Of a stretch of DNA of 64,000 nt, positions 10,690 to 64,000 are shown piece after piece; positions within the stretch are counted from its first letter, which is position 1; each line of letters starts with the position of its first letter. The DNA lies in the NCBI GenBank assembly GCA_049521495.1, contig JBEKOT010000001.1, positions 1,242 to 65,241 on the forward strand, in the 5' to 3' direction. Both the position numbers and the translations under genes were made by a program. This DNA is from Syntrophorhabdales bacterium (GTDB taxonomy: Bacteria; Desulfobacterota; Syntrophorhabdia; Syntrophorhabdales; WCHB1-27). The notes beneath the pieces are model-generated. The model had not been told where the DNA came from and searched no databases. It saw nothing but the letters and a program-made list of their open reading frames with translations.

Positions 10690-11886
10690 ATGTCCTTCAT
10701 ACTCCGGCTTCCCGCAACTGCGGCCTCCCTGTACGTCATCGCCGTTACGTCATACCTCCTGGCCATCGCCGTAGCCGCTTATTTCTTCAAGAAAAAGGCG
10801 ACATACGGGGGAGCGCCTCTTCGGCTCGCCGTCGTAATACCGGCCCATAACGAAGAAGCGCATATAGGGCAGACAGTCGAATGTCTCCACAGATCGAACT
10901 ATCCCAAGGGGTTCTACGCCATCTTCGTCATCGCGGATAATTGCGATGACCGGACGGAGGAGGTCGCCAGCCGGGCAGGGGCTCGCGTTTTCAGGCGGGT
11001 CGATCCGGCAAAGCGCGGTAAAGGCCGGGCCCTCGACTGGTTCCTGAGGAACCATGCTTCTGCGTACGCGCCGTATCACGCGGTCGTCATGATCGACGCG
11101 GACACCCTTACCCACGCCGATTTCCTGAAGGAGATGGCGGCAAGCCTCAAACATCCGGCCGTACAGGCCGTACAGGCGTATTATGGCGTCTCTAATGCTG
11201 CCGCGCACTGGAGGAGCGGGCTTGTTTCCGCCGCCTTCCACGTGTTCAACCATCTGAGGCCCGCCGGCCACAACTGCCTGGGCGGAACGGCGGGCCTGCG
11301 GGGCAACGGGATGGGTTTCAGAAAGGCGCTCCTCAGAGATGGATGGCCCGCCTATTCCATTATAGAAGATTACGAGTTCTCCCTGAGACTTCTAGTCAAC
11401 GGCGTAATCGTTCACTACAATCCCGACGCCATGGTCTTCTCGGACATGCCGGCCGAGAGGAAAGTCGCGGAGACCCAGAGGATGCGATGGGAAGGGGGCT
11501 CCCGGCAGATGAAACATATGTTCGTGAGGCTGATTCTTAGAAGGGTCTTGAAGGAGCCGCGCGCCTGTTACTTTGATGCCCTGGCTAACTCTTTCGTCCC
11601 GCCCCTGGCGCGTCTCGTCCTCGGGCAGTTATTCTTCTTTACGGTCGGTCTTGCCCTAAATTCATCGCTGGTGTTCCCCCTGGCATGTTGTTTCGCCGTC
11701 GACATTTTTTATGTCGTCTCCGGGCTAACCCTTAGAAAGGCGGGCAGGGTTGAATGGCGCAGCTTGCTCTGGGCGCCCTTGTACGTGCTGTGGAAGGTGT
11801 ACCTCTATTTCAAGATGCGGAACCAGGATCCAACTGTTTGGAAGCGGACCCGCAGGCCGTCGGAGCTTCGAGGATTACAGCACTGA
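10690..11886 (+). CDS. Membrane glycosyltransferase family 2 with QxxRW motif (synthase-like)
   Basis: N-terminal TM, VVIPAHNEEAHIGQTVECL, FVIADNCDDRT, MIDADT and ETQRMRWEGG (QxxRW). C-terminal TM helices. Confidence 0.8.
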   Translation: MSFILRLPATAASLYVIAVTSYLLAIAVAAYFFKKKATYGGAPLRLAVVIPAHNEEAHIGQTVECLHRSNYPKGFYAIFVIADNCDDRTEEVASRAGARVFRRVDPAKRGKGRALDWFLRNHASAYAPYHAVVMIDADTLTHADFLKEMAASLKHPAVQAVQAYYGVSNAAAHWRSGLVSAAFHVFNHLRPAGHNCLGGTAGLRGNGMGFRKALLRDGWPAYSIIEDYEFSLRLLVNGVIVHYNPDAMVFSDMPAERKVAETQRMRWEGGSRQMKHMFVRLILRRVLKEPRACYFDALANSFVPPLARLVLGQLFFFTVGLALNSSLVFPLACCFAVDIFYVVSGLTLRKAGRVEWRSLLWAPLYVLWKVYLYFKMRNQDPTVWKRTRRPSELRGLQH

Positions 11887-12158
11887 AACGGCGGCGCCGG
11901 TGATCGCGGGAGCAGCCGTCCCACCGAAAGCCGTAAGGAGGCCGGGCGGGACCTTAAGTGAAGTCGCCGCCCCATCCACTTGGCAGGCGCCCGGGGCGGC
12001 GGGGGCGGGGTCACCCATTCGCGGGTCGGGCGGGCGCCGGGCCGAATGCGCGGTCGACGGGTCTCCGACAAAGGAATGACCGGCAATCGATTGCGCTTAG
12101 GTTCCCGGTATCGCGGGCCTGCTGAGCATACCCGGCCACTATATCGACGGAGGAGCAT

Positions 12159-13523
12159 ATGGAGGCGTTAAAAGTAATCATTCCGATCTACTTTATCATT
12201 TTCGTCCTCGGCGGTTTCCGGAACATAAAGATGTACCTGCTTCTCACGGGGATCGTGACCATGCCCTTCAGGACCACCTATACCATCGTGGACGTGGGGC
12301 CCTACGTAGGCTGGACGAACGGCATCAACATAGCCTTATCGGATGTCTCCTTCATCCTCCTTTTCATCTACCTCTTCATAACGAAGACAAAGTTCGAGGG
12401 GTTCTCCCGCAGACTCACCTTCGCTGCAATGCTCTTTATCGGGTCGGTGCTCCTCTCGCTGATCAATTCGACATGGTTGCGCCTGTCTTTCTTTGAAGCG
12501 ATACTGATCGCCCAGGTTTTCTTCCTCTACTATATCGTCCTGACCGCGGCAATCCAAACGGAGAAAGAACTGCGCATGGTTATGGTCATGCTCATGATAT
12601 CGCTCATCGTGCAGGGCACTTTCGGGACCGTCCAGTATCTTACCGGAAAGGAACTCGACATATTCAGCACGGGGAAGCCCCCGGTCGAAGAGTCCGGGGA
12701 AGACTTTCTTTCGCGGGCCCTGGGCACTATAGGAAAACCTAATGCTCTCGCAATGTATGTAGTGCCCCTCATCTTGCTCGTCACGGCATTGCTCATGAAA
12801 AGCAGGGGGTTATACAGGAGACTGGGCACGCTGGCCATCTCTGCAGGCGGCCTCGCGCTCATTCTCAGCCTTTCCCGCGGGGGGTGGGTGGCCTTTGCCG
12901 CCGCTTTCATCGTCCTCCTCTTTATACTTGCAAAAGGGGGGTACGTGAGGGCTAAAGCTCCCTTCCTGGCCCTCCTCGTTGCGGCCCTCGTAGTAGTCAT
13001 GTTCTTCGGTCTGATCGAAGCCCGCCTTATGAGTCAGGAAGGGGCCGATGCGACCCAGGACCGGATTAATCTCATCAAGATCGCATGGAATATGATCAAG
13101 GACTACCCCGTTCTCGGCGTCGGGGCCAACACGTTCATGTCCGTAGTGCACAGGTACACGCGGGGTCCGGAGCTCCAGGACATTTACCTGCACATGGTCC
13201 ATAACCAGTACCTTCTCGTCTTTGCGGAAACCGGTCTTGTAGGTCTCATCGCTTTCCTATGGTTCATGCTCGCCTGCTTCCGGGAATCGCGGGAATGCGT
13301 CCGGAAGCAGTCGGAGCTTTCACAGATGGTCGGTGTAAGCGTGGGCGCCGGGTTTATCGCAATGGCCGCCCACATGATGGTCGATATGTACTCGTCTCCC
13401 CTGTGCCTTAGCCTGATCTTCGTTTTCTGCGGCCTTTGCTCGGCGGCAAAGAAGGTAGGCGTTGCAGCGGGAACGGCGCCGCCTGTTCGAAAGATCGGGC
13501 GCCCCCCGCATATGACGGTGTAG
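12159..13523 (+). CDS. O-antigen ligase/polymerase-family (Wzy_C-like) membrane protein
   Basis: Polytopic membrane protein with the characteristic LSLSRGGWVAFAAAF loop. GGAGGAG RBS. Confidence 0.75.
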   Translation: MEALKVIIPIYFIIFVLGGFRNIKMYLLLTGIVTMPFRTTYTIVDVGPYVGWTNGINIALSDVSFILLFIYLFITKTKFEGFSRRLTFAAMLFIGSVLLSLINSTWLRLSFFEAILIAQVFFLYYIVLTAAIQTEKELRMVMVMLMISLIVQGTFGTVQYLTGKELDIFSTGKPPVEESGEDFLSRALGTIGKPNALAMYVVPLILLVTALLMKSRGLYRRLGTLAISAGGLALILSLSRGGWVAFAAAFIVLLFILAKGGYVRAKAPFLALLVAALVVVMFFGLIEARLMSQEGADATQDRINLIKIAWNMIKDYPVLGVGANTFMSVVHRYTRGPELQDIYLHMVHNQYLLVFAETGLVGLIAFLWFMLACFRESRECVRKQSELSQMVGVSVGAGFIAMAAHMMVDMYSSPLCLSLIFVFCGLCSAAKKVGVAAGTAPPVRKIGRPPHMTV

Positions 13524-53895: not shown

Positions 53896-54594
53896 CTATA
53901 TCCTGGGCTCCTGGCCTTGTCTTATCTTTCTCTTGATGAGGTTCTTGCCTCTCGTCATATGCTTCATCACGAGCTTTTCGACCTGCCTTGCATTTTTCGC
54001 CTTTACCGACGCAAGCATATCCTTGTGGTCCTGGACGGCAGCCGGTGCCTTTCTGCCGTAGCGCAGCAGTATTACCCGGTACCGGTACATGTAATCTCTC
54101 AGGTCGTTGAGCAAGGCGTATAACCGGTTGTTCTTAGCGGCCTCGTAGAGCTTGTCGTGAAATTCACCGTCAAGCCTGATGAATTCGTCGACGTCCGTGC
54201 TCTTCAGGCACGCTTCCTGGGCCGTGATGATATCTTCGAGGGCTTTCAGCTCGTCGCTCTCGATCCTTTGCGTTGCCAGGTAGCCGGCGTACCCTTCCAG
54301 GACAGCCCTCAAGCCGAATACCTCTTCGACTTCCTCCTCGGTAACTCCTTTTACAGCGAACCCTCCCCTGGGGAGTCTCTGTATAAGCCCTTCCTTTTCA
54401 AGCTTCTGTATCGCTTCCCGGACCGGGGTCCGGCTCGTCTTCATATCTTCAGCCAGCCTTTCCTCGATGAGCCTTTTTCCCGGCTCGAATTCTCCGCCGA
54501 TAATGGCATTCTTAATCCCGCCGTAAACCTGCTCTCTCAAAAGCTTTTTCTTTTTTCTCTTGCGGTCTTCCCCGCTACCCCGAATCTTCATCAC
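53896..54594 (-). CDS. GntR-family transcriptional regulator (FadR/FCD type)
   Basis: GKRLIEERLAEDMKTSRTPVREAIQKLEKEGLI wHTH and a helical C-terminal FCD-like domain. Confidence 0.85.
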   Translation of the reverse strand: MMKIRGSGEDRKRKKKKLLREQVYGGIKNAIIGGEFEPGKRLIEERLAEDMKTSRTPVREAIQKLEKEGLIQRLPRGGFAVKGVTEEEVEEVFGLRAVLEGYAGYLATQRIESDELKALEDIITAQEACLKSTDVDEFIRLDGEFHDKLYEAAKNNRLYALLNDLRDYMYRYRVILLRYGRKAPAAVQDHKDMLASVKAKNARQVEKLVMKHMTRGKNLIKRKIRQGQEPRI

Positions 54595-54710
54595 TATCCT
54601 CCTTCGTATCTTCCGGATAACCCTCTATATCAAAGGCCTCATAGTTTAGCACAAAAGATCACATCATTGTATGCAGTTTTTTACGTAATAATATACACTC
54701 CCGATGGGCG

Positions 54711-56351
54711 CTAATTTCCGGGGGCCTTGGGCCAGGCTAAAGCGGTCCTGGCCCACCCGGAGATTTTTGCGAGCAGCCTTCTCGTCTCCGGCACGCGCAA
54801 AAGAGTTGTCATGGCGAAGTATACGATGCCGTACAGTCCAAGACATCCTGCAGCGAGAGTGATCGGACTGTGCGAATGCATCGTCAGCTTTAGCCCCCAG
54901 CCGGCTGCTGCTGCGGCTGCCGCGGCGGTCCATAGCTTGGCCGCGAAGGAGATGGAGAGGCCCGTCCTGCCGATGCGGGTTTCGAGCGTATTTCGTAGCA
55001 GCGCCAACTCCAGCCATCCGGCTATTCCACCCGACGCGGTAAGTCCCACTACGCCCCATCGCGGGCTAAGGCCCAGGAACTGCGGCAGGTGCAGGGCCGA
55101 TACGTATCCCAGCCCGGCAGAGAGGAGGACCCGCAACATGGCAAAACGAAGGGGAGTGCGTGTATCTCGTAGCGCATAATAGGCGGACGCATAGAGCCTG
55201 CCCGACGTGGTGGCCAACAGGCCCACAGCGTATCCGCCCAGGATAGCCCACACATAGACGGAGTCTTGCCGCCCGAACCTGCCCGTCTGGTAAATTGCCC
55301 CGGCAATGATATCCCCCAGGGCGAGAAAGCCCATAGCGGAAGGAACGACAAAAAAGGCTATCTGACGAAGGGCTGAGTTAAGACGGTCCCTCAAGTAGGC
55401 GCCCACCTCATTGGACTCCCCCAGGGCACTCGAAAAGGCGGGCAGCTCTGCGGCAGACACGGACATACCGAAAAGGCTCACCGGCAATATATACAAGGTC
55501 TGGGCATAGACAAGCGAGGCCAGAGCGCCTGTTGGGAGGAAACTTGCAAAGAGCGTATCGACGTAGGCGCTGATCTGCACCACGCCGCGGCTGAGGAGCA
55601 TCGGCATGAAGTTGCGGACCACCGCTCGGACGTTTTTGTTCGCAAGGCCGAGCAATACCCGGAATCGACGGATGAGACGGAAAACCAGCGGAAACTGCAC
55701 ACCCATCTGGAGAGCGCTGCCGGCAACAGACCCCCATGCCAGGGCCTTTGTGAGTGAGACCGGCTCCAGGCGGCCCCCGAATGCGACCAGCGAGACGATC
55801 ATCATCAGGTTCCAGGCTACAGGAGCGGAGTAGGAAAGGAAGAATCGCCGATGACTGTTGAGAACCCCAAGGCACCAGGCCGAAATCGCCAGCAGCCCTG
55901 CGCCGGGGAAGAGAATGCGCACGAGACTGACCGTGGCCTGGAGCTTGGCGCCCCTGAACCCAGGTGCAATTAAGTCCGTCAAGACCGGCGCGGCCAGTAC
56001 ACCGATGAGAACCAGGCACGACATGGTGAGGGCAAGGAGACAGAAGACCGCACAGGCGACGTCGTCAGCCTCGTCTTCCGCTTTACGGGCAAGGAGATTG
56101 GCATAGGCAGGGATAAAGGAAGCGGACAACGCCCCTTCGCCGAAGAGATTCTGGAGGAGATTTGGGATCCGGAAGGCCGCCCGGAAAACGTCGGCCGCGT
56201 CGGAGCTTCCGAAGTAGTATGCAAAAACGCGATCCCTCAACAAACCGGCGATGCGGCTGAGCAAGATGCCCGATGCCACCAGCGCTGCGTGGTGATTTGC
56301 CTCCTTCCGCTCGCCCTTCGAAGGCCGGGCCTTGCTGCCGAGGACCGTCAC
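54711..56351 (-). CDS. murJ: Lipid II flippase MurJ (MviN)
   Basis: LLSRIAGLLRDRVFAYYFGSSDAADVFRAAFRIPNLLQNLFGEGALSASFIP. About 14 TM. Confidence 0.9.
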   Translation of the reverse strand: MTVLGSKARPSKGERKEANHHAALVASGILLSRIAGLLRDRVFAYYFGSSDAADVFRAAFRIPNLLQNLFGEGALSASFIPAYANLLARKAEDEADDVACAVFCLLALTMSCLVLIGVLAAPVLTDLIAPGFRGAKLQATVSLVRILFPGAGLLAISAWCLGVLNSHRRFFLSYSAPVAWNLMMIVSLVAFGGRLEPVSLTKALAWGSVAGSALQMGVQFPLVFRLIRRFRVLLGLANKNVRAVVRNFMPMLLSRGVVQISAYVDTLFASFLPTGALASLVYAQTLYILPVSLFGMSVSAAELPAFSSALGESNEVGAYLRDRLNSALRQIAFFVVPSAMGFLALGDIIAGAIYQTGRFGRQDSVYVWAILGGYAVGLLATTSGRLYASAYYALRDTRTPLRFAMLRVLLSAGLGYVSALHLPQFLGLSPRWGVVGLTASGGIAGWLELALLRNTLETRIGRTGLSISFAAKLWTAAAAAAAAGWGLKLTMHSHSPITLAAGCLGLYGIVYFAMTTLLRVPETRRLLAKISGWARTALAWPKAPGN

Positions 56352-56516: not shown

Positions 56517-56837
56517 ATGGACTATTACATGGCCGATACTCCGGGGCGATTAAGGATCGAGAGCCGGGCCCTCAAGTCCGGCAGTCCCGATTTTGAGAAA
56601 TTCAGCGATTTCATCGCCCGTATCCCTGGCGTCTCCTCGGTCAAGGTCAGACAGGAGATCGGCAGCGCCACGATCCTCTATGACCCAGAAAAGCTCGATC
56701 ATACAAAGCTCATCGAAGCCCTCGACAAAAGCGGCTATTTCGACCATTCAAAGGCAAAGACGCCGGATGACTACCTTGACGAAGGGATCGAGAAAGCGGA
56801 AAAAATCGTGGCGGACGTGATCGAGAGCGAGCTTTAG
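56517..56837 (+). CDS. Small HMA-like (ferredoxin-fold, no CxxC) protein
   Basis: GAGGAGGA RBS. PGRLRIESRAL...IPGVSSVKVRQEIGSATILYDPEKLDHTKLIEALDKSGY parallels the two HMA-like domains at 62.1-63.6 kb. Confidence 0.5.
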   Translation: MDYYMADTPGRLRIESRALKSGSPDFEKFSDFIARIPGVSSVKVRQEIGSATILYDPEKLDHTKLIEALDKSGYFDHSKAKTPDDYLDEGIEKAEKIVADVIESEL

Positions 56838-57036: not shown

Positions 57037-58113
57037 TTACCCGAGACCCCTGAAGACGAAAGAGAGAAGATAGATAAGGAGACCTGCCAGCCCGCCCACA
57101 ATCGTGCCGTTGATCCTTATCCACTGAAGGTCCTTGCCCACGTACAGCTCGATCCGTCTGCTCGTTGCCTCGGGGTCCCATTTTTTGACCGTCTCCGAGA
57201 TGAAAAGCGCGAAAAGCTCCTTGTTCTCGTCCACGGCCTCCGATACCAATGTGCGCAAGCCCCGGTTGATCCTTTCCTTCAGGTCTTCATCCGCGAGCGC
57301 CTTTTGTCCCGCGTCCCGGATGAAGGCAGCGACCTGTTGAACGAAATCCGAATCGGGATTCGCGAGATCCCTCATAATCTTCTCTTTGAGAATCTTCCAG
57401 ACAAGAGGCGTATAAACCGGCTTATCGGCGGTGGCTTCCGCCGCCCCGCCGCCGTTCCCGTGGGTCCGGCCTCCGGCTGCTCTTTGATAGAGGGAACGGC
57501 CTTGTTTCCGAATCCCCGATAGGGCTTGACCGACGGAAGCGAGGACCCGGCGAAAAAGAGGCAGGTTCACGCTGTCGAGACCTCCCCTTCCTTCGCTATC
57601 AGGGCTACCGCCTTGGCCTCGAAGGAGGGGCGGGATATATTCGGCCGCCGCTCTCGCAATGAAGCGGGCGTTGCCCGCATCGGAAAGCCAGGCGGTCAGA
57701 AAGCCTGCGAGGTCGACGGTCGCCATCTTTTTTTCGAGAAGATCTCTCGTGAGGAAGTTCTCCTTGATGAAACGGGCAAGGCTTTCCCCTATTCTGTCCC
57801 TGTTTCGCGGGATGACGGCTGTCCGGGGTATGGGCAGGTTAAGGGGGTGCCGGAAAAGGGCCACCACAGCGAACCAATCGGCAAGGGCTCCTATCGTCCC
57901 TGCCTCGCTGAAGGCCGCGACGAACCCGAGAAGGGGATACCGTGACTGGAGCATCCGGGAGACCCAGCAGACAACGGCCATGAGGACGAGGAGGCCCGTT
58001 GCGAAAAGCTTCATCCGCTTTAAGGATCTCTCCTGCTCCCTTCCGAATTCCGCCGTCCGGCTCATCTTGGGAATAGCATACTCTTCTTGCACTTTATGTC
58101 TACCTTTCATCAA
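57037..58113 (-). CDS. DUF445-family membrane protein
   Basis: ALADWFAVVALFRHPLNLPIPRTAVIPRNRDRIGESLARFIKENFL matches the recalled DUF445 signature. C-terminal TM. Confidence 0.7.
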   Translation of the reverse strand: MMKGRHKVQEEYAIPKMSRTAEFGREQERSLKRMKLFATGLLVLMAVVCWVSRMLQSRYPLLGFVAAFSEAGTIGALADWFAVVALFRHPLNLPIPRTAVIPRNRDRIGESLARFIKENFLTRDLLEKKMATVDLAGFLTAWLSDAGNARFIARAAAEYIPPLLRGQGGSPDSEGRGGLDSVNLPLFRRVLASVGQALSGIRKQGRSLYQRAAGGRTHGNGGGAAEATADKPVYTPLVWKILKEKIMRDLANPDSDFVQQVAAFIRDAGQKALADEDLKERINRGLRTLVSEAVDENKELFALFISETVKKWDPEATSRRIELYVGKDLQWIRINGTIVGGLAGLLIYLLSFVFRGLG

Positions 58114-58125
58114 GTCAGTCGAGGT

Positions 58126-59319
58126 CTACGAGCCGGACTGGAGGAGGTGGGCCTTGTCCGTCACCTCCCAGGGGAGACCAATATCCATGCGCCCTACATG
58201 GCCGTAAGAGGCCAGGCGCCGATAGAAGCCGCCCTTGACGGTCGAAGGGAGATAGCGGAGGTTGAACTGCCGGAGAATGGCTGCAGGACGAAAGTCAAGG
58301 TGGCGCTCGACGCGGGCCGCGATCTCGTCGTCCGGTATCTTCCCGGTGCCGAAGGTCTCCACCTGTATGCTCACAGGTTGCGCAAGTCCTATGGAATAGC
58401 TCAAGAGGACTTCGCATTCCTCGGCAAGTCCGGCGGCTACCACATTCTTCGCGGCGTACCTCGCGGCATAAGCCCCGGTGCGGTCGATCCGGAGCGGGTC
58501 TTTGCCGCTGAGGGCGGCGCCGCTGTGGCGCGAATACTCGCCGTAGGTATCGATGGCGTTCTTTCTGCCCGTGAGACCACTGTGGACCGAGGGGCCGCCG
58601 CCGTAAAAAAGGCCGTCAGGGTTCATGAATATCCGTGTTCTCTCATCCGGCCTGAAGGGCTCGTCTGCAAAGACCGGCGCGACGACCGCCTCGGTGAGGC
58701 CGTCCCGGAGGCCCTTGAGCGTTGTATCCTGCCTCGTGGTACTGGCAATGACAGTGATGCTGTGGATGCGGCTCGGCCTCCGGCCCTCGTACTCCACTGC
58801 CACCTGGGTCCAGCCGTCCGGTCCAAGGTCGGGGAGCATCTTCCGCAGGCGGACAGAAGTGAGCCTACGCGCCAACTTATGGGCGAGCCATATGGGAAGG
58901 GGCATGAACGCCGGCGTCTGGGTGCAGGCAAAGCCGAATATGGTCGCCTGGTTGCGGACAACAACACGGTCGATCTCGTCGTATGTGAGGTTCTTCTCGT
59001 CGAACCGGCTGTACTCGTCAGGCGGCATCTCGCGGAGGCTGGTTACTACAGTACACGTCTTCGCGTTGAACTGGGGCTCAGCATAGCCTACCTGGTCGAT
59101 AACCTCACGGGCGATATAGGGGAAATCGACGGGGTTGGGCGTATCGAACCTCGCCGCAATGAAGACGATAGCGTTCGAGACTGCGCACTCCGCCACCACG
59201 CGGGCATAGGGATCGCGCCTGAGAATGTGGTCGACAAAGGCGTCGCTGATCTGGTCGCACAGCTTGTCGGGGTGCCCCTCCGTAACCGATTCCGAAGTGA
59301 ATACGAATGGTCTCTTCAC
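58126..59319 (-). CDS. metK: S-adenosylmethionine synthetase
   Basis: FTSESVTEGHPDKLCDQISDAFVD and LSGKDPLRIDRTGAYAARY. GTG start overlaps the ATPase stop (GTGA). Confidence 0.95.
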   Translation of the reverse strand: MKRPFVFTSESVTEGHPDKLCDQISDAFVDHILRRDPYARVVAECAVSNAIVFIAARFDTPNPVDFPYIAREVIDQVGYAEPQFNAKTCTVVTSLREMPPDEYSRFDEKNLTYDEIDRVVVRNQATIFGFACTQTPAFMPLPIWLAHKLARRLTSVRLRKMLPDLGPDGWTQVAVEYEGRRPSRIHSITVIASTTRQDTTLKGLRDGLTEAVVAPVFADEPFRPDERTRIFMNPDGLFYGGGPSVHSGLTGRKNAIDTYGEYSRHSGAALSGKDPLRIDRTGAYAARYAAKNVVAAGLAEECEVLLSYSIGLAQPVSIQVETFGTGKIPDDEIAARVERHLDFRPAAILRQFNLRYLPSTVKGGFYRRLASYGHVGRMDIGLPWEVTDKAHLLQSGS

Positions 59320-62300
59320 ACGTCGCCCCGCGTGCCCTTCTTTATGGCTTCGTTGACAAAGAGGGGAAGAACTGCCCCTCCTCCCGTGATAAGACCGTCG
59401 ACGATGCCTATGCGACTGATGCCGAGGAGGTTTCGGAGGCCTGGAACAGCCATGGCGACGCCCTGGAGGATGAAGGTGCCTATGAGAGCGCCCGTCAGGT
59501 AGCGGTTCGGCGCCAGTCTCCCCTTGTCAAAGATCGTCCTTTCCTCCGAGCGGCAGGTCAGCGCATGGAGAAGCTGGCCCACTGTAAGGCTCAAAAAAGC
59601 CATTGTGCCCGCCCGGGGCCCCTGGCCGTAACGGGCAACGCCGTATCCGTAAGCACCTAGGGAGCCTGCCGAGATAACGGCCCCCTCCCTCAGCATCTTT
59701 TTCAGGCTGGCCGGCTGAAGGATTTCCTCCGCGGGGTCCCTGGGGGGACGGAGCAGGACGTCCGGCTCAGGCTGCTCCATGGCAAGGGCAAGACCTGGAA
59801 AAATGTCGGAAACGAGGTTGATCCAGAGGAACTGCATTGCGGTCAAGGGCTCTCCGAGCCCGGCCGTAATGGAGACGGTGGTAACCATGATCTCGCTCAT
59901 GTTGGTCGAGAGCAGGTAGTGGAGCGCCTTCCTGATATTGTTGTATATGGTGCGCCCCTCGCTGATCGCGACCAGCATGGTCTCCAGGTCATCGTTCTCA
60001 AGCACTATGTCCGCCACCTCTCGGGCCACGTCGGTGCCTGTATGACCCATCGCGATGCCGATGGCGGCGGCTTTCAGGGCAGGCCCGTCGTTGATGCCGT
60101 CGCCGGTCATACCCACGACCTTGCCTTGCTCCTGGAGGACCTGCAAGATCTGGAGCTTGTGAGCAGGACTTACTCTGGCGAAAACGTGAAGCCCGGAGGT
60201 GAGGCCTTTGAGCACCTCGGGCTGCATTCCGGCCAAATGGCGCGAATCGAGGATGCGGACATCCCCGCCGCCTGCAAGGTCCAGCTCCTTCGCTACCGCA
60301 TATGCAGTGGCGCTCTGGTCGCCTGTGATCATGACCGTGTCGATCCCTGCCTTGTGAAAGCCGGCGATGAGGTCCTTGACGCCATGCCGTACGGGGTCGG
60401 TCATGCCGACCATGCCGAGCCACGTCATGTCCCTCACGGCGATGTCGCCGTTTTCCAAAAGGACAAGGCTGCTGTCCGAGAGCGATCGGGCAAGCCCGAG
60501 CACCCTGAGACTCTGGCCGGCCATCTCTTCATTGGCTGCCTGGATGTCGCTTCTCGCATCTTCTGACAGGGGAAGACGGGCTCCGTCCTTCATGTACCAG
60601 GCGCATCCCGCCAGAACTTCGGGAGGGCTCCCCTTCATAGCCAGAAGGCGTTTCGCGCTGTTGCGGATGGAGTGGACCGTCATCATGACGTTCCTCGTCT
60701 CGGATCTATGTATGATGTTGACGAGGGCAAAGGATTCCCTTAACTCCTGCACATTGACCCCTGCGTTCAGAGCTAGGTGGATGAGGGCGTTTTCAGTCGG
60801 GGACCCCGTAACGGAGTAAGTCCCGTCGGCGCCGAATACCTCGCTCTCGTTGCAGAGGGCGCCCACGTGAAGGAGCATCAACAGCTCCTCGCAGCCGTAC
60901 GGGTTAATCTCCCCATTCGGGCAGGCGAATCTGCCGTCCCTCACGTGCATGTGGTAAGGGCTCGTGAAAAGCCGGGTCACCGTCATCCTGTTGAGCGTCA
61001 ACGTACCTGTTTTGTCGAGGCATATGGTCTGGACGGACCCCAGGGTCTCGATGGCCTCGAGGCGCCTAACCAGGACATGGTGTCTGCGCATGCTCCTTAT
61101 GCCAAGTCCAAGGGCAGTCGTGGCAACGGTGGGGAGACCCTCGGGAACGGCTGCAACAGCGAGGGCGATTGACGATTTCAGCATCCGGAGTAAACCATAG
61201 CCTCTCAATATACCCGCGAGGAATACGATTGCGCAGACAGCCGAGCTCATTATGGCGAGTTTTGTGCCCATGCGGCCCAGCTGAAGCTCCATGGGTGTGG
61301 CCGGGGCTCTTGCCTCGCCCATGAGTATCTGGATGCGGCCGGTCTCCGTGTAAGGGCCCGTTGCGACTGCAACCGCAAGACCCTGCCCGCCCGTTACAAG
61401 GGTCCCCATATAGACCATATTTGTTCTGTCGGCCAGAGGGAGGTCGGCGTCTTCCAGGACTTCGGTTGTCTTGTGGGCAGGCATGCTCTCGCCTGTAAGG
61501 GCCGATTCGTCCACACTCAGATGACTCGCGGCAATGAGTCTCGCGTCCGCAGCTACATAACTTCCCGGCCGAAGCACAAGCAGGTCTCCGGGCACCACCT
61601 CCTCTACGCCTGTCTGCACTATCTCCCCGTCCCGCTTTACGAGGGCGGCAGGCCTTACAAGATTCTTGAGGGAGCTGATGATCTTCTCCGACCGGCTCTC
61701 AGTCACGTAGCCTATGGAGGCGTTGATCGCCACCACGCCCATGATCACAACCGCATCGGCAAGGCCGCCGGTCAACAGGGATAGGCCGGCCGCTACGCCG
61801 AGAAGCAGCACCGGAAAGCTCTTGAACTGCTCTGCCAGGATGGACCAGGCGGAGCGAGGCACCGATTCGGGGAGTATGTTGGGGCCGAAGCGCTTGAGGT
61901 TTTCTCTATAAGCCTTCGGGGTAAGCCCTGTGTCAGGGCTTACCCCGAAGGCGGTGAGCGCCTCGCGCGGCTGACGAAGGTGCCATGAACTGTAGTCCTG
62001 CGCTTCTTTCGCCGGACAAGGCCGCTTCTTTGAAGTCCCGGCCGGCACGGCCGGCCTGGCGGGAAACGGTAGTCTTAGAGGGCGGCTACCCTCGTCAGCA
62101 TCGACGCGGGACGGCAGAAGTCCGCCCAGCTCTTTTTCGATCTCACGGGCTGTTCTGGAGGCGTTGTGGATAACGAGGACATTGCCGGTAAGGGGACTTG
62201 CCGATACATGGGTTATATCGACATTCTTCGACAGCCTTTCTTCCAGATGCCTCTTCAGCTCGTGCGACCCGTAGAGTCCTTCGACCTTTAAGCGGACCCT

Positions 62301-62333
62301 TCCGCGGACAGCGGCGTGAACTATCTGGACCAA
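59316..62333 (-). CDS. P2-type (SERCA/PMCA-like) cation-translocating P-type ATPase with N-terminal HMA-like domain
   Basis: CLDKTGTLT, VPEGLPTV, MITGD and MTGDGINDGPALKAA. The TM5/TM6 segments STNMSE and WINLVSD are as in Ca-ATPases. First ~65 aa are RGRVRLKVEGL...ITHVSASPLTGNVLVIHN. TTG start 3 nt after the upstream stop. Confidence 0.9.
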   Translation of the reverse strand: MVQIVHAAVRGRVRLKVEGLYGSHELKRHLEERLSKNVDITHVSASPLTGNVLVIHNASRTAREIEKELGGLLPSRVDADEGSRPLRLPFPARPAVPAGTSKKRPCPAKEAQDYSSWHLRQPREALTAFGVSPDTGLTPKAYRENLKRFGPNILPESVPRSAWSILAEQFKSFPVLLLGVAAGLSLLTGGLADAVVIMGVVAINASIGYVTESRSEKIISSLKNLVRPAALVKRDGEIVQTGVEEVVPGDLLVLRPGSYVAADARLIAASHLSVDESALTGESMPAHKTTEVLEDADLPLADRTNMVYMGTLVTGGQGLAVAVATGPYTETGRIQILMGEARAPATPMELQLGRMGTKLAIMSSAVCAIVFLAGILRGYGLLRMLKSSIALAVAAVPEGLPTVATTALGLGIRSMRRHHVLVRRLEAIETLGSVQTICLDKTGTLTLNRMTVTRLFTSPYHMHVRDGRFACPNGEINPYGCEELLMLLHVGALCNESEVFGADGTYSVTGSPTENALIHLALNAGVNVQELRESFALVNIIHRSETRNVMMTVHSIRNSAKRLLAMKGSPPEVLAGCAWYMKDGARLPLSEDARSDIQAANEEMAGQSLRVLGLARSLSDSSLVLLENGDIAVRDMTWLGMVGMTDPVRHGVKDLIAGFHKAGIDTVMITGDQSATAYAVAKELDLAGGGDVRILDSRHLAGMQPEVLKGLTSGLHVFARVSPAHKLQILQVLQEQGKVVGMTGDGINDGPALKAAAIGIAMGHTGTDVAREVADIVLENDDLETMLVAISEGRTIYNNIRKALHYLLSTNMSEIMVTTVSITAGLGEPLTAMQFLWINLVSDIFPGLALAMEQPEPDVLLRPPRDPAEEILQPASLKKMLREGAVISAGSLGAYGYGVARYGQGPRAGTMAFLSLTVGQLLHALTCRSEERTIFDKGRLAPNRYLTGALIGTFILQGVAMAVPGLRNLLGISRIGIVDGLITGGGAVLPLFVNEAIKKGTRGDV

Positions 62334-62336
62334 GGA

Positions 62337-63035
62337 CTACTCTTTCGTCTTCCGTCTTTGATCGGCCGGTTTTTCTGCTTCGGACGGCGTGCTCTTTTCC
62401 GGACGCCCCGACGGCGGAGGACCCGCAGGCGGTTTCGCGGGAAAAGCGGCTCCTGCCAGGTCTCTCACGCCCTCCGCCACACCGGCTAGCATCCCCCTTA
62501 CGGCCTTGGCCGCTGTCACCCCTATGGTGCCTGCTGCTTCGATGGCCCCTCCGACTGCGACTTTCGCCATGTCTTCGGCGCTAACTCCGATCTCTTTCGC
62601 CGCCTCGATGACACCGTCGACTGCGCGTCTTGCAACAAGGGAAACATCGGCGCCGACTTCCGAAGCCCCTTTAACCGCACCCTTCACCGTCTGGCTTGCC
62701 ATCCCTACCACATCTCCGCCCACGTCTCCGACGCCCATGATAATGCCTTTGGTGACGCTCTTCGTGCTAAGGATGAGGCCTGTCCCCACCTCCTCCGTCG
62801 CCCTTATCGCGCCTTTGACAACCTCTGTCGTAAGGTTGAGGCTCATGCCCGCCAGATCCGCGCTGAGCTTGAGACTGTCGGCAACGGTGTTCCTGACGAG
62901 GCTCACGATGTCCGCCTCGATCTCGTTGAGACCCTTCAGACTTCGGACCACGCCCTCTTTTACCGCAGCCCCGGCCCGTCCAAGGTCTGCCTCAGTCGAG
63001 CCTTTCGTTTCGCCTGCCTGTGTTTTCGGATCCAC
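62337..63035 (-). CDS. Repeat protein: six consecutive 22-residue Gly/Ala/Val-rich amphipathic repeats, Pro/Lys-rich tail
   Basis: GTG 63035 has AAGGAGG 6 nt upstream. Repeats fit V-x-G-[AVI]-[IVA]-x5-[VIL]-G-x10 from VKGAIRATEEVG... to LAGVAEGVRDLAG. The opposite-strand ORF (62389-63273) looks like low-complexity shadow. Confidence 0.55.
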   Translation of the reverse strand: MDPKTQAGETKGSTEADLGRAGAAVKEGVVRSLKGLNEIEADIVSLVRNTVADSLKLSADLAGMSLNLTTEVVKGAIRATEEVGTGLILSTKSVTKGIIMGVGDVGGDVVGMASQTVKGAVKGASEVGADVSLVARRAVDGVIEAAKEIGVSAEDMAKVAVGGAIEAAGTIGVTAAKAVRGMLAGVAEGVRDLAGAAFPAKPPAGPPPSGRPEKSTPSEAEKPADQRRKTKE

Positions 63036-63082
63036 TCGGTACCTCCTTCTTCCTGATTTTCTTTGCGGCGGGCTCTCACGGC

Positions 63083-63589
63083 CTATAGTAACGACTTTTC
63101 CTTCTCCCCGCTGTCCCTGCCCGATTTGCCGAATATCCCAAGAGCGTACCAGAATGCCGTATACCATGCCGGCGCAGCAAAGTTGCCTCGCGCTATCTGA
63201 TAGACGCCGGCTATTACAAGGGCAAGAAAGGCCAGGCCTGCCAGATCGACGCTCCGTCCCGTCATCCCCTTGATGCGTCCGTCGATTGAGCCGAAGAGGG
63301 TAGAGACGGAATCGTGGAGGGTCGTGACCTTTCCTTCCGGGTCCTCCCGTACGAAGAAGAGATCGCGTGAACCGGGAGCTTCCATGATTTCTCCGATTGG
63401 AACTCTGTGGTGCACGAGGATGCTCGCCGTCCGCGGCGAGACTTCGACCCGCTCCACCCCCTCCATTGCGGAAAGGGCATCCCGTACCGAAGCAAAGTAT
63501 ATGTCGTCACCTTTTCTTGAAGGCACGCGCAGCCGGAACCTTCCCGCCATCCGGTGTGTGAAGAAGGCATCGGGAATCATAGGACGCAC
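63083..63589 (-). CDS. HMA-like (HMA_2-type, no CxxC) domain protein with two C-terminal TM helices
   Basis: AGRFRLRVPSR...MEGVERVEVSPRTASILVHHR. TM segments LAGLAFLALVIAGVYQIA and WYTAFWYALGIF. The start overlaps the upstream stop by 1 nt. Confidence 0.6.
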   Translation of the reverse strand: MRPMIPDAFFTHRMAGRFRLRVPSRKGDDIYFASVRDALSAMEGVERVEVSPRTASILVHHRVPIGEIMEAPGSRDLFFVREDPEGKVTTLHDSVSTLFGSIDGRIKGMTGRSVDLAGLAFLALVIAGVYQIARGNFAAPAWYTAFWYALGIFGKSGRDSGEKEKSLL

Positions 63590-63855
63590 TACCCGCCCTC
63601 AACCTTTTCGCCTGTCCGGGCCGCTTGCTCGGCTGCGATCTCCGCCTTGGCCTCCGCCATGAGGTCGTCGACGACCTCATGCATCTCGGCGAGTTTCTCC
63701 CTACCGGTCTCGAAGAGCGTAAGCCCCCCTCTTATCGCCGCTTTAGCGAGAGGCTTAGCGGCTTTTGATAGGGCGGGAACAATTAGAGGCGCAATAATTA
63801 CGGAACCGACGCCGATGGCCAACCCTGTGATTATATTGCTTTTGAACGAACCCAC
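63589..63855 (-). CDS. DUF5132-like small protein (N-terminal TM plus charged helix)
   Basis: GTG start with AGGGGG upstream. IITGLAIGVGSVIIAPLIVPALSKAAKPLAKAAIRGG...EKLAEMHEVVDDLMAEAKAEI matches my recollection of DUF5132. Confidence 0.55.
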   Translation of the reverse strand: MGSFKSNIITGLAIGVGSVIIAPLIVPALSKAAKPLAKAAIRGGLTLFETGREKLAEMHEVVDDLMAEAKAEIAAEQAARTGEKVEGG

Positions 63856-63906
63856 TGCCCACCCCCTGAGGAACTTATCTTTAGCAACACTATGCCGGTT
63901 TCACAT

Positions 63907-63935
63907 AATATAGTCCTACTCCAATAAGTTCGCAA
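63907..63935 (-). promoter_or_regulatory. Sigma70-like promoter TTGCGA-17 nt-TATATT (minus strand) upstream of the DUF5132-like gene
   Basis: Hexamers and 17-nt spacer read on the reverse complement, about 50 nt upstream of GTG 63855. Confidence 0.45.
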
Positions 63936-64000
63936 GAATAAAAGGAGTTAAGGAGAGTGGAATTTTCATTATCCACCTCTCTCCGGGAAGCGGGGACCCG

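Follow-up and report, generated by a model that had tools for sequence, protein, structure and literature searches.

Organization of the locus

The sequence studied here, referred to as the window, is a 64,000 nucleotide (nt) stretch of contig JBEKOT010000001.1 from a Syntrophorhabdales bacterium. The same contig is present in many ENA metagenome assemblies and the closest named relatives are metagenome-assembled genomes (MAGs) of Syntrophorhabdales. Six co-directional minus strand open reading frames (ORFs) fill window positions 63855–57037. In order they encode a DUF5132 protein, a membrane-anchored protein with a CoBaHMA domain (HMA_2 in Pfam), a helical-repeat protein termed REP, a P2-type cation ATPase, a protein with the fold of methionine adenosyltransferase (MetK) and a DUF445 membrane protein. 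The successive junctions are −1, +47, +3, −4 (a GTGA overlap) and +12 nt, where the value of +47 assumes that REP starts at the GTG at 63035, which is the choice of the gene caller; the longest ORF begins at 63167. An initial annotation of the window, made without database searches, had described these six packed genes and their junctions, and a check of the ORF coordinates agrees with it. The six genes are real, however a seventh was missed, i.e. a small HMA_2 gene on the plus strand which is convergent with the operon and is part of the conserved set.

Comparison of gene order across genomes indicates that the region is a genuine conserved operon-like module that is not yet characterized. 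The MetK-like protein displays replacements at the methionine-binding positions and is encoded directly after the pump gene in nearly all loci. On balance, with considerable room for doubt, the sequence comparisons favor a CoBaHMA-regulated P2 pump for Ca2+/Mn2+ that has dedicated membrane, scaffold and MetK-derived partners. The features of the locus are as follows (aa, amino acids).

63589–63855, minus strand: DUF5132 protein, 88 aa, PF17195 (E 1e-11, 45.2 bits, gathering score 25); N-terminal transmembrane helix, then a charged cytoplasmic helix
63083–63589, minus strand: membrane-anchored CoBaHMA (HMA_2) protein, 168 aa, PF19991 (E 2e-12, 47.9 bits)
62337–63035, minus strand: REP, helical-repeat protein, 232 aa, 22-residue periodicity, no known family
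59316–62333, minus strand: P2-type cation ATPase, 1005 aa, Pfam domains E1-E2_ATPase, Cation_ATPase_N, Hydrolase and Cation_ATPase_C; CoBaHMA domain at residues 1–65, then a disordered linker
58126–59319, minus strand: variant MetK-fold protein, 397 aa, three MetK Pfam domains, TIGR01034 at 360 bits
57037–58113, minus strand: DUF445 membrane protein, 351–358 aa, PF04286 (E 8e-69, 233.7 bits, gathering score 33.8)
56517–56837, plus strand, convergent with the operon: small soluble CoBaHMA/HMA_2 protein, 106 aa, PF19991 at 38.2 bits and PF00403 at 28.6 bits
63907–63935, minus strand: sigma-70-like promoter candidate TTGCGA-17-TATATT, from a consensus scan
63964–63979, minus strand: 16-nt upstream motif GAGGTGGATAATGAAA, consensus GAGGYGRRTAATGAAA, conserved in subgroup loci

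The families PF17195, PF19991 and PF04286 are those assigned by the Pfam profile search, and they bear out the DUF5132-like, HMA-like and DUF445 calls made earlier from the sequence.

Conservation of gene order

A scan with the REP alignment over one genome per GTDB species gave 169 relatives, of which 80 loci were kept, mostly from Nitrospirota and Desulfobacterota. The flanks of these loci were annotated with hidden Markov models built from the window proteins, and the fractions given here count loci with enough flank. The ATPase gene is found directly 3′ of REP in 64/74 loci and a MetK homologue directly follows the ATPase in 53/55. DUF5132 is 5′ of REP in 60/69 loci and the HMA_2 protein with transmembrane (TM) segments in 58/69. 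The order is therefore strongly conserved, and the proposal that small genes form an operon-like module beside a P2 ATPase holds. In 56/80 loci one or two small HMA_2 genes adjoin the cluster.

The order DUF5132, HMA_2, REP, ATPase, MetK-like spans Nitrospirota, Desulfobacterota, Candidatus Brocadia and others. The loci of three HMA_2 homologues with 70%, 55% and 42% identity, the last in a Nitrospirota MAG, display the order DUF5132, HMA_2, a Pfam-less protein of about 230 aa, ATPase and MetK. The conserved core consists of DUF5132, the membrane-anchored CoBaHMA protein, the P2 ATPase with its N-terminal CoBaHMA domain and the MetK-derived protein, to which REP is added in the subfamily of the window. 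DUF445 had been counted as part of the module. It is present in only 13/80 loci, at varying positions and orientations, and is a lineage-specific accessory gene outside of the core.

The MetK-like protein

Median identities to the window copies are 70% for the MetK-like protein, 59% for REP, 58% for the ATPase, 49% for DUF5132 and 41% for HMA_2; with orthologues about 70% identical across phyla, the MetK-like protein is the most conserved product of the cluster. It scores 360 bits with TIGR01034 (cutoff 309), displays approximately 41% identity to E. coli MetK and is annotated in public MAGs as ‘methionine adenosyltransferase’. The initial annotation accordingly listed metK among the genes with a known biochemical role. 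This is misleading, as all four residues that bind the amino and carboxyl groups of methionine are replaced.

In MetK, Glu55 and Asp238 bind the methionine amino group and Gln98 and Lys269 bind the carboxylate (PMC1282579, PMC3853416). The window protein has Arg at 55, Met at 98, His at 238 and Arg at 269, together with Asn at 118 and Trp at 165. The residue pattern was read in 57 locus sequences, 120 close homologues and a further 107 sequences, and the search covered 1.84 billion representative proteins. Arg55, His238 and Arg269 are present in 57/57 locus sequences and 120/120 close homologues. Gln98 is changed to Leu, Met or Ser and is kept in none of these 57 + 120 sequences. Asp118 of the GAGDQG motif is Asn in 49/57 loci and in 120/120 close homologues, and the motif is lost. 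The change of Lys165 to Trp is restricted to the subgroup of the window. Residues that are kept are His14, Asp16, Glu42, Asp163, Arg244, Lys245, Lys265 and Asp271; the triphosphate, Mg2+ and K+ residues and the catalytic His14 are conserved in the 57 and 120 homologues. Canonical MetKs show no variation at any of the 15 sites checked. Thus the three-domain fold, His14 and the triphosphate/metal residues are common to this protein and canonical MetK (E. coli, PDB 1RG9/1P7L), but the methionine-site residues are replaced and the gene is found inside a pump operon rather than alone.

Judged by these residues, the MetK-like protein almost certainly belongs to a variant clade and is not a canonical S-adenosylmethionine (SAM) synthetase. 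A separate clade, made up of 17 or more divergent representatives, has kept His238 and Arg269 as well as the triphosphate site. In its deep branches the adenine-stacking F230 as well as K165 vary. In clade members at 55%, 48% and 43% identity the gene still directly follows that of a P2 ATPase, and the pairing of pump and MetK-like protein is therefore judged to be old and obligate. The HMA_2-TM and DUF5132 genes are alongside in two of these three divergent lineages, and the third, which is on a short contig, shows a small HMA_2 gene only. The protein may transfer an adenosyl group to an anionic nucleophile, cleave triphosphate or serve as a nucleotide sensor. Searches of the literature on MetK paralogues and MetK-like proteins found nothing relevant.

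A chance juxtaposition of a housekeeping metK, a generic Ca2+ efflux pump and unrelated small genes would fit the TIGR01034 score and the label in public MAGs. However more than 50 species from several phyla keep the order, with stop and start codons that overlap, and canonical MetKs never vary at the four positions that are replaced here. The synteny and the residue data thus contradict this explanation, which is considered very improbable.

A separate observation concerns Trp165 and DUF445. All 10 of the Trp165 loci have DUF445, Trp165 occurs in 0/44 loci without DUF445, and DUF445 is present in only 2/46 Lys165 loci. This association may be due to shared ancestry or to co-adaptation.

CoBaHMA domains and DUF5132

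The 168 aa protein matches positions 11–152 of the 154 positions of the PF19991 profile, including the C-terminal hairpin. The gathering score of this profile is 30, and both the 168 aa protein (47.9 bits) and the plus strand 106 aa protein (38.2 bits) exceed it; ATPase residues 5–59 give a match of 26.5 bits, which is under the cutoff. The AlphaFold2 (AF2) model of the 168 aa protein displays the arrangement β0 (residues 7–14)-β1-α1-β2-β3-α2-β4, after which come a linker helix and a TM hairpin, and its predicted local distance difference test score (pLDDT) is >90 over residues 10–70. The top Foldseek matches are the HMA domains of MerP, HIPP, CCS and CopZ.

Cysteine is absent from all three HMA-like domains. 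The initial annotation considered metallochaperone-like domains lacking CxxC to be unexpected, but a family of this kind has been described. CoBaHMA has the HMA-type ferredoxin fold with an extra strand β0 that carries a conserved His, basic residues in β1/β2, and no CxxC (PMC8890360). The cysteine-free domains are this published family, which corresponds to HMA_2 of Pfam. In the 168 aa protein His12 is conserved in ≥90% of sequences, and R17 and R19 are invariant. The N-termini of the ATPases show the CoBaHMA signature in 54–55/55 orthologues, i.e. H6 (54/55), R12, R14 and K/R16, and these residues together with the sub-threshold match uphold the earlier view of an HMA-like ATPase N-terminus. 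The small plus strand HMA_2 protein does not have the conserved β0 His.

The most conserved part of the 168 aa protein is its TM hairpin, GIYQIARGNFAAPAWYTAFWYALGIF, which is nearly invariant. This high conservation suggests that the hairpin is an intramembrane contact surface. A later preprint cites the hypothesis that CoBaHMA domains are regulatory and bind anionic lipids. Presence of the domain in the pump, in a membrane-anchored protein and in a soluble protein makes a P-type pump with a tethered CoBaHMA domain and copies supplied in trans a possible regulatory architecture. Fusions between CoBaHMA and transporters are reportedly known already (Gaschignard et al. 2024). To our knowledge, this combination of a tethered regulatory domain with trans copies of it has not previously been described among bacterial P2 ATPases.

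In 49 loci there is also a zinc-ribbon protein of about 105 aa that belongs to a common family and adjoins the small HMA_2 gene in the loci inspected. The window has no zinc-ribbon gene.

The P2-type ATPase

The ATPase displays PEGLP, STNMSE and NLVSD, whose key residues are invariant in 55 orthologues. The same is true of TGES, DKTGT, E398 in M4, N811 and E814 in M5, and N839, S842 and D843 in M6. This agrees with the earlier statement that the residues are of the Ca-ATPase type and not CPx. Among PDB sequences it matches Listeria LMCA1 best (490 bits), followed by human SPCA1 (481) and SERCA (395). The window pump has the catalytic motifs of LMCA1, SPCA1 and SERCA1a, and the ligands of Ca2+ site II (E398, N839, D843) are complete and identical. 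At site I it has N811, E814 and S842, with Gln920 in place of the M8 Glu. Gln920 lies at what we take to be the position of SERCA E908, from a manual alignment with the SERCA M8 sequence.

Unlike LMCA1 and SPCA1, which both lack the M5 Glu and the M6 Ser/Thr in the alignments, the window pump keeps the SERCA-type site-I residues N811, E814 and S842; Q920, at the E908 position, is opposite R795 of LMCA1. It also differs from P2A/P2C Ca2+ pumps in its N-terminal CoBaHMA domain, its below-cutoff equivalog scores and the MetK-like gene that follows it. NCBIfam ranks the PMR1-type model first and the SERCA-type model second. The ion site thus appears SERCA-like with one Glu-to-Gln change, which is compatible with Ca2+ and possibly Mn2+ and is no proof of either.

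A heavy-metal resistance operon, in which HMA metallochaperones would hand Cu, Zn or Cd to an ATPase for export, finds some basis in the confirmed HMA-superfamily fold and in the label ‘copper chaperone CopZ’ that some homologues carry at JGI. However none of the three HMA-like domains has a cysteine, the transport helix has PEGLP instead of CPx, and the N- and C-terminal domains of the pump are of the P2 type. The P1B model TIGR01525 scores 230 bits, far below its cutoff of 346. This explanation is hardly credible.

The initial annotation had also drawn an analogy to ferrosome (fez) clusters. In ferrosomes the pump is an iron ATPase of the P1B-6 type. What stands of the analogy is the likeness in organization, a P-type ATPase with small membrane proteins, but the pump here is P2-type with Ca-type ligands, and no homology of the small proteins was seen, in work that did not include a direct comparison with Fez sequences. 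The nearest published parallel is instead the ccyA/cax neighborhood of Microcystis. Both the heavy-metal and the ferrosome readings were rejected on motif grounds. MgtCBR, KdpFABC and CopZ/CopA likewise combine a P-type ATPase with small regulatory or chaperone partners, and MgtC or MgtE is near REP or the cluster in some loci; however their accessory families are different and none has a MetK-fold or a helical-repeat protein.

The helical-repeat protein REP

REP consists of eight 22-residue repeats and a Pro/Lys-rich tail. The BLOSUM autocorrelation of the sequence peaks at lags of 11, 22, 44 and 66, and the hydrophobic moment peaks sharply at 98.2 degrees (3 turns in 11 residues), a single maximum that is coherent over 180 residues. 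The 22-residue repeat noticed in the initial annotation is seen in both measures. REP is 62% identical between the Syntrophorhabdia-like and Nitrospirota copies. Searches for relatives by Pfam (to E 1), by NCBIfam, by profile in the PDB and by Foldseek on PDB structures yielded only chance matches and de novo designed repeat proteins. The AF2 model has one helix per repeat with solenoid packing, and its nearest structures are again de novo designed helical repeat proteins. As far as these sequence and structure comparisons go, REP is a new protein family.

Paralogues of REP and DUF5132 adjoin genes for TerC, for MgtC with an MntP-like protein, and for MgtE. That REP recurs next to divalent-cation proteins of several kinds is the strongest independent evidence of a cation-related role, and the divalent-cation role that was proposed as speculation fits this evidence.

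Several REP loci (L077 8072–11585, L078 and L062 9313–12108) lack the ATPase. One arrangement among them is DUF5132, a 183 aa membrane protein, a zinc-ribbon protein, REP and a TerC-family protein, and the other is DUF2721, REP, an MntP-like protein (a weak match) and MgtC. Other REP paralogues (P0124–P0126, P0130 and P0135, with an example at L070 10001–11083) carry at their C-terminus a fused DNA-binding domain of the MucR/ROS type (PF05443, E 4e-26). The N-terminus of MucR is normally an oligomerization domain, and the REP part occupies that place in the fused paralogues.

Upstream sequences and adjacent genes

The promoter candidate at 63935–63907 is present as first described, and its −35 and −10 hexamers are kept in 4/6 close relatives. 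However it agrees with the consensus at 9/12 positions, which is a weak match. Further upstream, about 110 nt 5′ of the DUF5132 start, is the 16-nt motif. It occurs as a single copy approximately 100–130 nt 5′ of DUF5132 in 16/16 loci of the Syntrophorhabdales-like subgroup that carries DUF445, and none of the remaining 80 loci has it. The motif resembles a Shine-Dalgarno sequence followed by ATG, and in one locus (L074) it is partially duplicated. A leader peptide was considered and rejected. Since the ORF downstream of the ATG is unconserved, the motif is probably a regulator-binding site. No intrinsic terminators above chance were found within the operon, and Rfam gave no match to Mn2+, Mg2+ or SAM riboswitches in the window region or in 7 loci.

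In the same organism, the region 5′ of the operon beyond the end of the window (L001 1–9241) encodes a 290 aa protein without a Pfam match, a class I methyltransferase, DUF1614, ThiI, a KdpD-like/OmpR two-component pair, KdpA and KdpB. On the 3′ side, window positions 53896–56351 encode MurJ and a GntR/FCD regulator. None of the genes on either side could be tied to the operon.

Neighboring genes in other lineages

In a Candidatus Brocadia MAG (L090) the whole set is on one strand together with MgtE and DUF3562, and past the MetK-like gene the stretch 11328–13523 contains a homologue of the CBS-MgtE Mg2+ channel, DUF3562, a fourth small HMA-like ORF and DUF445. DUF3562 follows the MetK-like gene in 26 other loci. 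Near the cluster there are also three groups of small (approximately 75–78 aa) Cys-rich, Pfam-less proteins, in 19, 15 and 11 loci; examples from Nitrospirota are L065 17439–17675, L048 7173–7400 and L034 8223–8456.

Many Nitrospirota loci (L009, L092 and about 25 others) have phosphate genes as neighbors. The cluster adjoins pstSCAB-phoU in 22–26 loci and an OmpR-type regulator in 18, and further neighbors are OlsB/PlsC-like acyltransferases, GT21, a low molecular weight phosphatase and a 5′-nucleotidase. The acyltransferases and GT21 are read as making phosphorus-free lipids. In an independent and very divergent lineage (L095 7729–11990) the cluster adjoins phnDCE and PhoD. Phosphate genes beside the cluster in two unrelated lineages make a phosphate link a serious rival. 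The module would then be of the Pho type, the MetK-derived protein would be a tripolyphosphatase or a polyphosphate-binding enzyme, and the pump would export Ca2+/Mg2+ released from polyphosphate or feed Ca2+ to Ca-dependent periplasmic phosphatases. The triphosphate/metal site is the conserved part of the MetK-like protein, with F230 and K165 varying in the deep branches, and canonical MetK has an intrinsic tripolyphosphatase activity. However, the window organism has no Pho genes beside the operon, the Pst linkage may reflect the synteny of one clade, and no Pho box was identified. In addition His14, the acid for C5′-O cleavage, and the ribose-binding D163 are (nearly) invariant, which argues that adenosyl chemistry has been retained. 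A Pho-type function is considered unlikely, without being negligible.

The ccyA neighborhood of Microcystis

In Microcystis aeruginosa PCC 7806, genes for DUF5132, a CoBaHMA-hairpin protein and a single-domain CoBaHMA protein adjoin ccyA and a Ca2+/H+ exchanger gene (bioRxiv 10.1101/2024.07.07.602159; PMC8890360), and DUF5132, the CoBaHMA-hairpin gene and cax are co-expressed with ccyA (bioRxiv 10.1101/2024.07.07.602159). This neighborhood is a candidate locus for intracellular amorphous calcium carbonate (iACC). The likeness to the present cluster comprises DUF5132 (a TM segment and a long helix), CoBaHMA with a C-terminal hairpin, single-domain CoBaHMA and a Ca2+ transporter. The host of the ccyA locus is a cyanobacterium, however, and the transporter there is a CAX exchanger, where a P2 ATPase is found here. 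It encodes calcyanin with an apolar (GlyZip)3 and has no REP or MetK-like gene. REP is amphipathic, charged and 22-residue periodic, with one short glycine-zipper-like stretch.

The parallel raises the possibility of a mineral-inclusion or organelle module, a non-cyanobacterial counterpart of ccyA. The pump would load Ca2+ into a putative compartment or granule (amorphous Ca-carbonate or Ca/Mg-polyphosphate), CoBaHMA and DUF5132 would mark the compartment and REP would be its coat. The rare CoBaHMA/HMA_2 and DUF5132 families that flank and are co-expressed with ccyA and cax in iACC-forming Microcystis recur here, and some Nitrospirota make intracellular Ca-carbonates whose genetic basis is not known. 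REP is a highly conserved repeat protein with a glycine-zipper-like stretch at G97–G111, and its MucR-fused paralogues put REP at the place of an oligomerization domain. However a calcyanin-like apolar (GlyZip)3 protein is not seen in the cluster, as judged by eye and without a profile search. Many lineages that carry the cluster, syntrophs and anammox bacteria among them, are not known to calcify, and the polarity of the pump is unreadable from sequence. The idea is speculative, with some indirect support by analogy to the ccyA parallel, and an inclusion of this kind is held to be improbable. The membrane remodeling suggested in the initial annotation is likewise speculative.

A model for the module

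The regulated pump, with its dedicated partners, is the reading that is favored here. The catalytic motifs of the pump are intact, and all soluble domains are without signal peptides and face the cytoplasm by the positive-inside rule. The pump would move a divalent cation, Ca2+ and possibly Mn2+, out of the cytoplasm. The CoBaHMA domains with their basic patches (one in cis, one anchored in the membrane and one or two in soluble proteins) would together with DUF5132 gate or localize the pump, and this control would act through binding of an anionic partner. REP would be a soluble oligomerizing scaffold at the cytoplasmic face. The MetK-like protein would serve the pump as a dedicated enzyme or as a partner that senses nucleotide/triphosphate and would be distinct from the housekeeping SAM synthetase, with a chemistry that might be adenosylation of an anionic nucleophile or triphosphate cleavage. 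DUF445, DUF3562 and MgtE would be lineage-specific add-ons.

Several points weigh against this model. The module is known only from sequence and predicted structure, and a physical interaction among its products is suggested by gene order and by overlapping stops and starts. The choice of substrate ion follows from the ligand residues of the pump, which scores below the NCBIfam equivalog cutoffs of both the PMR1-type model (TIGR01522, 606 versus 798) and the SERCA-type model (TIGR01116, 517 versus 703). The AF2 confidence for REP is moderate (pLDDT 76, predicted template modeling score 0.62), and the compact solenoid could be an artefact for what is in fact a lipid-binding amphipathic repeat. 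The motif positions of the E. coli MetK reference sequence are in agreement with the PDB alignments. Neither the 64-kb window nor any of the 20-kb flanks has a second metK, a scope that is uninformative on whole genomes.

Significance

The individual domain families are already known. No description of the operon, of the REP family or of the variant MetK clade coupled to the pump was found in the searchable literature. A whole clade that is labeled ‘methionine adenosyltransferase’ in hundreds of MAGs is almost certainly an annotation error. Its methionine pocket has been switched from acidic to basic with the ATP-triphosphate site kept, and this makes it a candidate for a new reaction in a highly conserved fold. 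The locus would also place CoBaHMA/HMA_2, DUF5132 and the new 22-residue repeat family as accessory proteins of divalent-cation transporters.

In the most far-reaching version, which is put forward tentatively and is doubtful as a whole, a new MetK-derived enzyme (an adenosyltransferase or a triphosphate-cleaving enzyme with an anionic substrate) would be the obligate partner of the CoBaHMA-regulated Ca2+/Mn2+ pump. With REP, DUF5132 and CoBaHMA it would build or service a cation-rich inclusion of carbonate or polyphosphate in Nitrospirota, Desulfobacterota and anammox bacteria. If an inclusion of this type is present, the cluster would be the first genetic handle on CoBaHMA function and on intracellular calcification outside of the calcyanin-bearing cyanobacteria and Methylococcaceae. 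The candidate calcium-carbonate genes of cyanobacteria are tied to a much wider bacterial module around a Ca-type P2 ATPase, and the function of CoBaHMA could thereby become testable.

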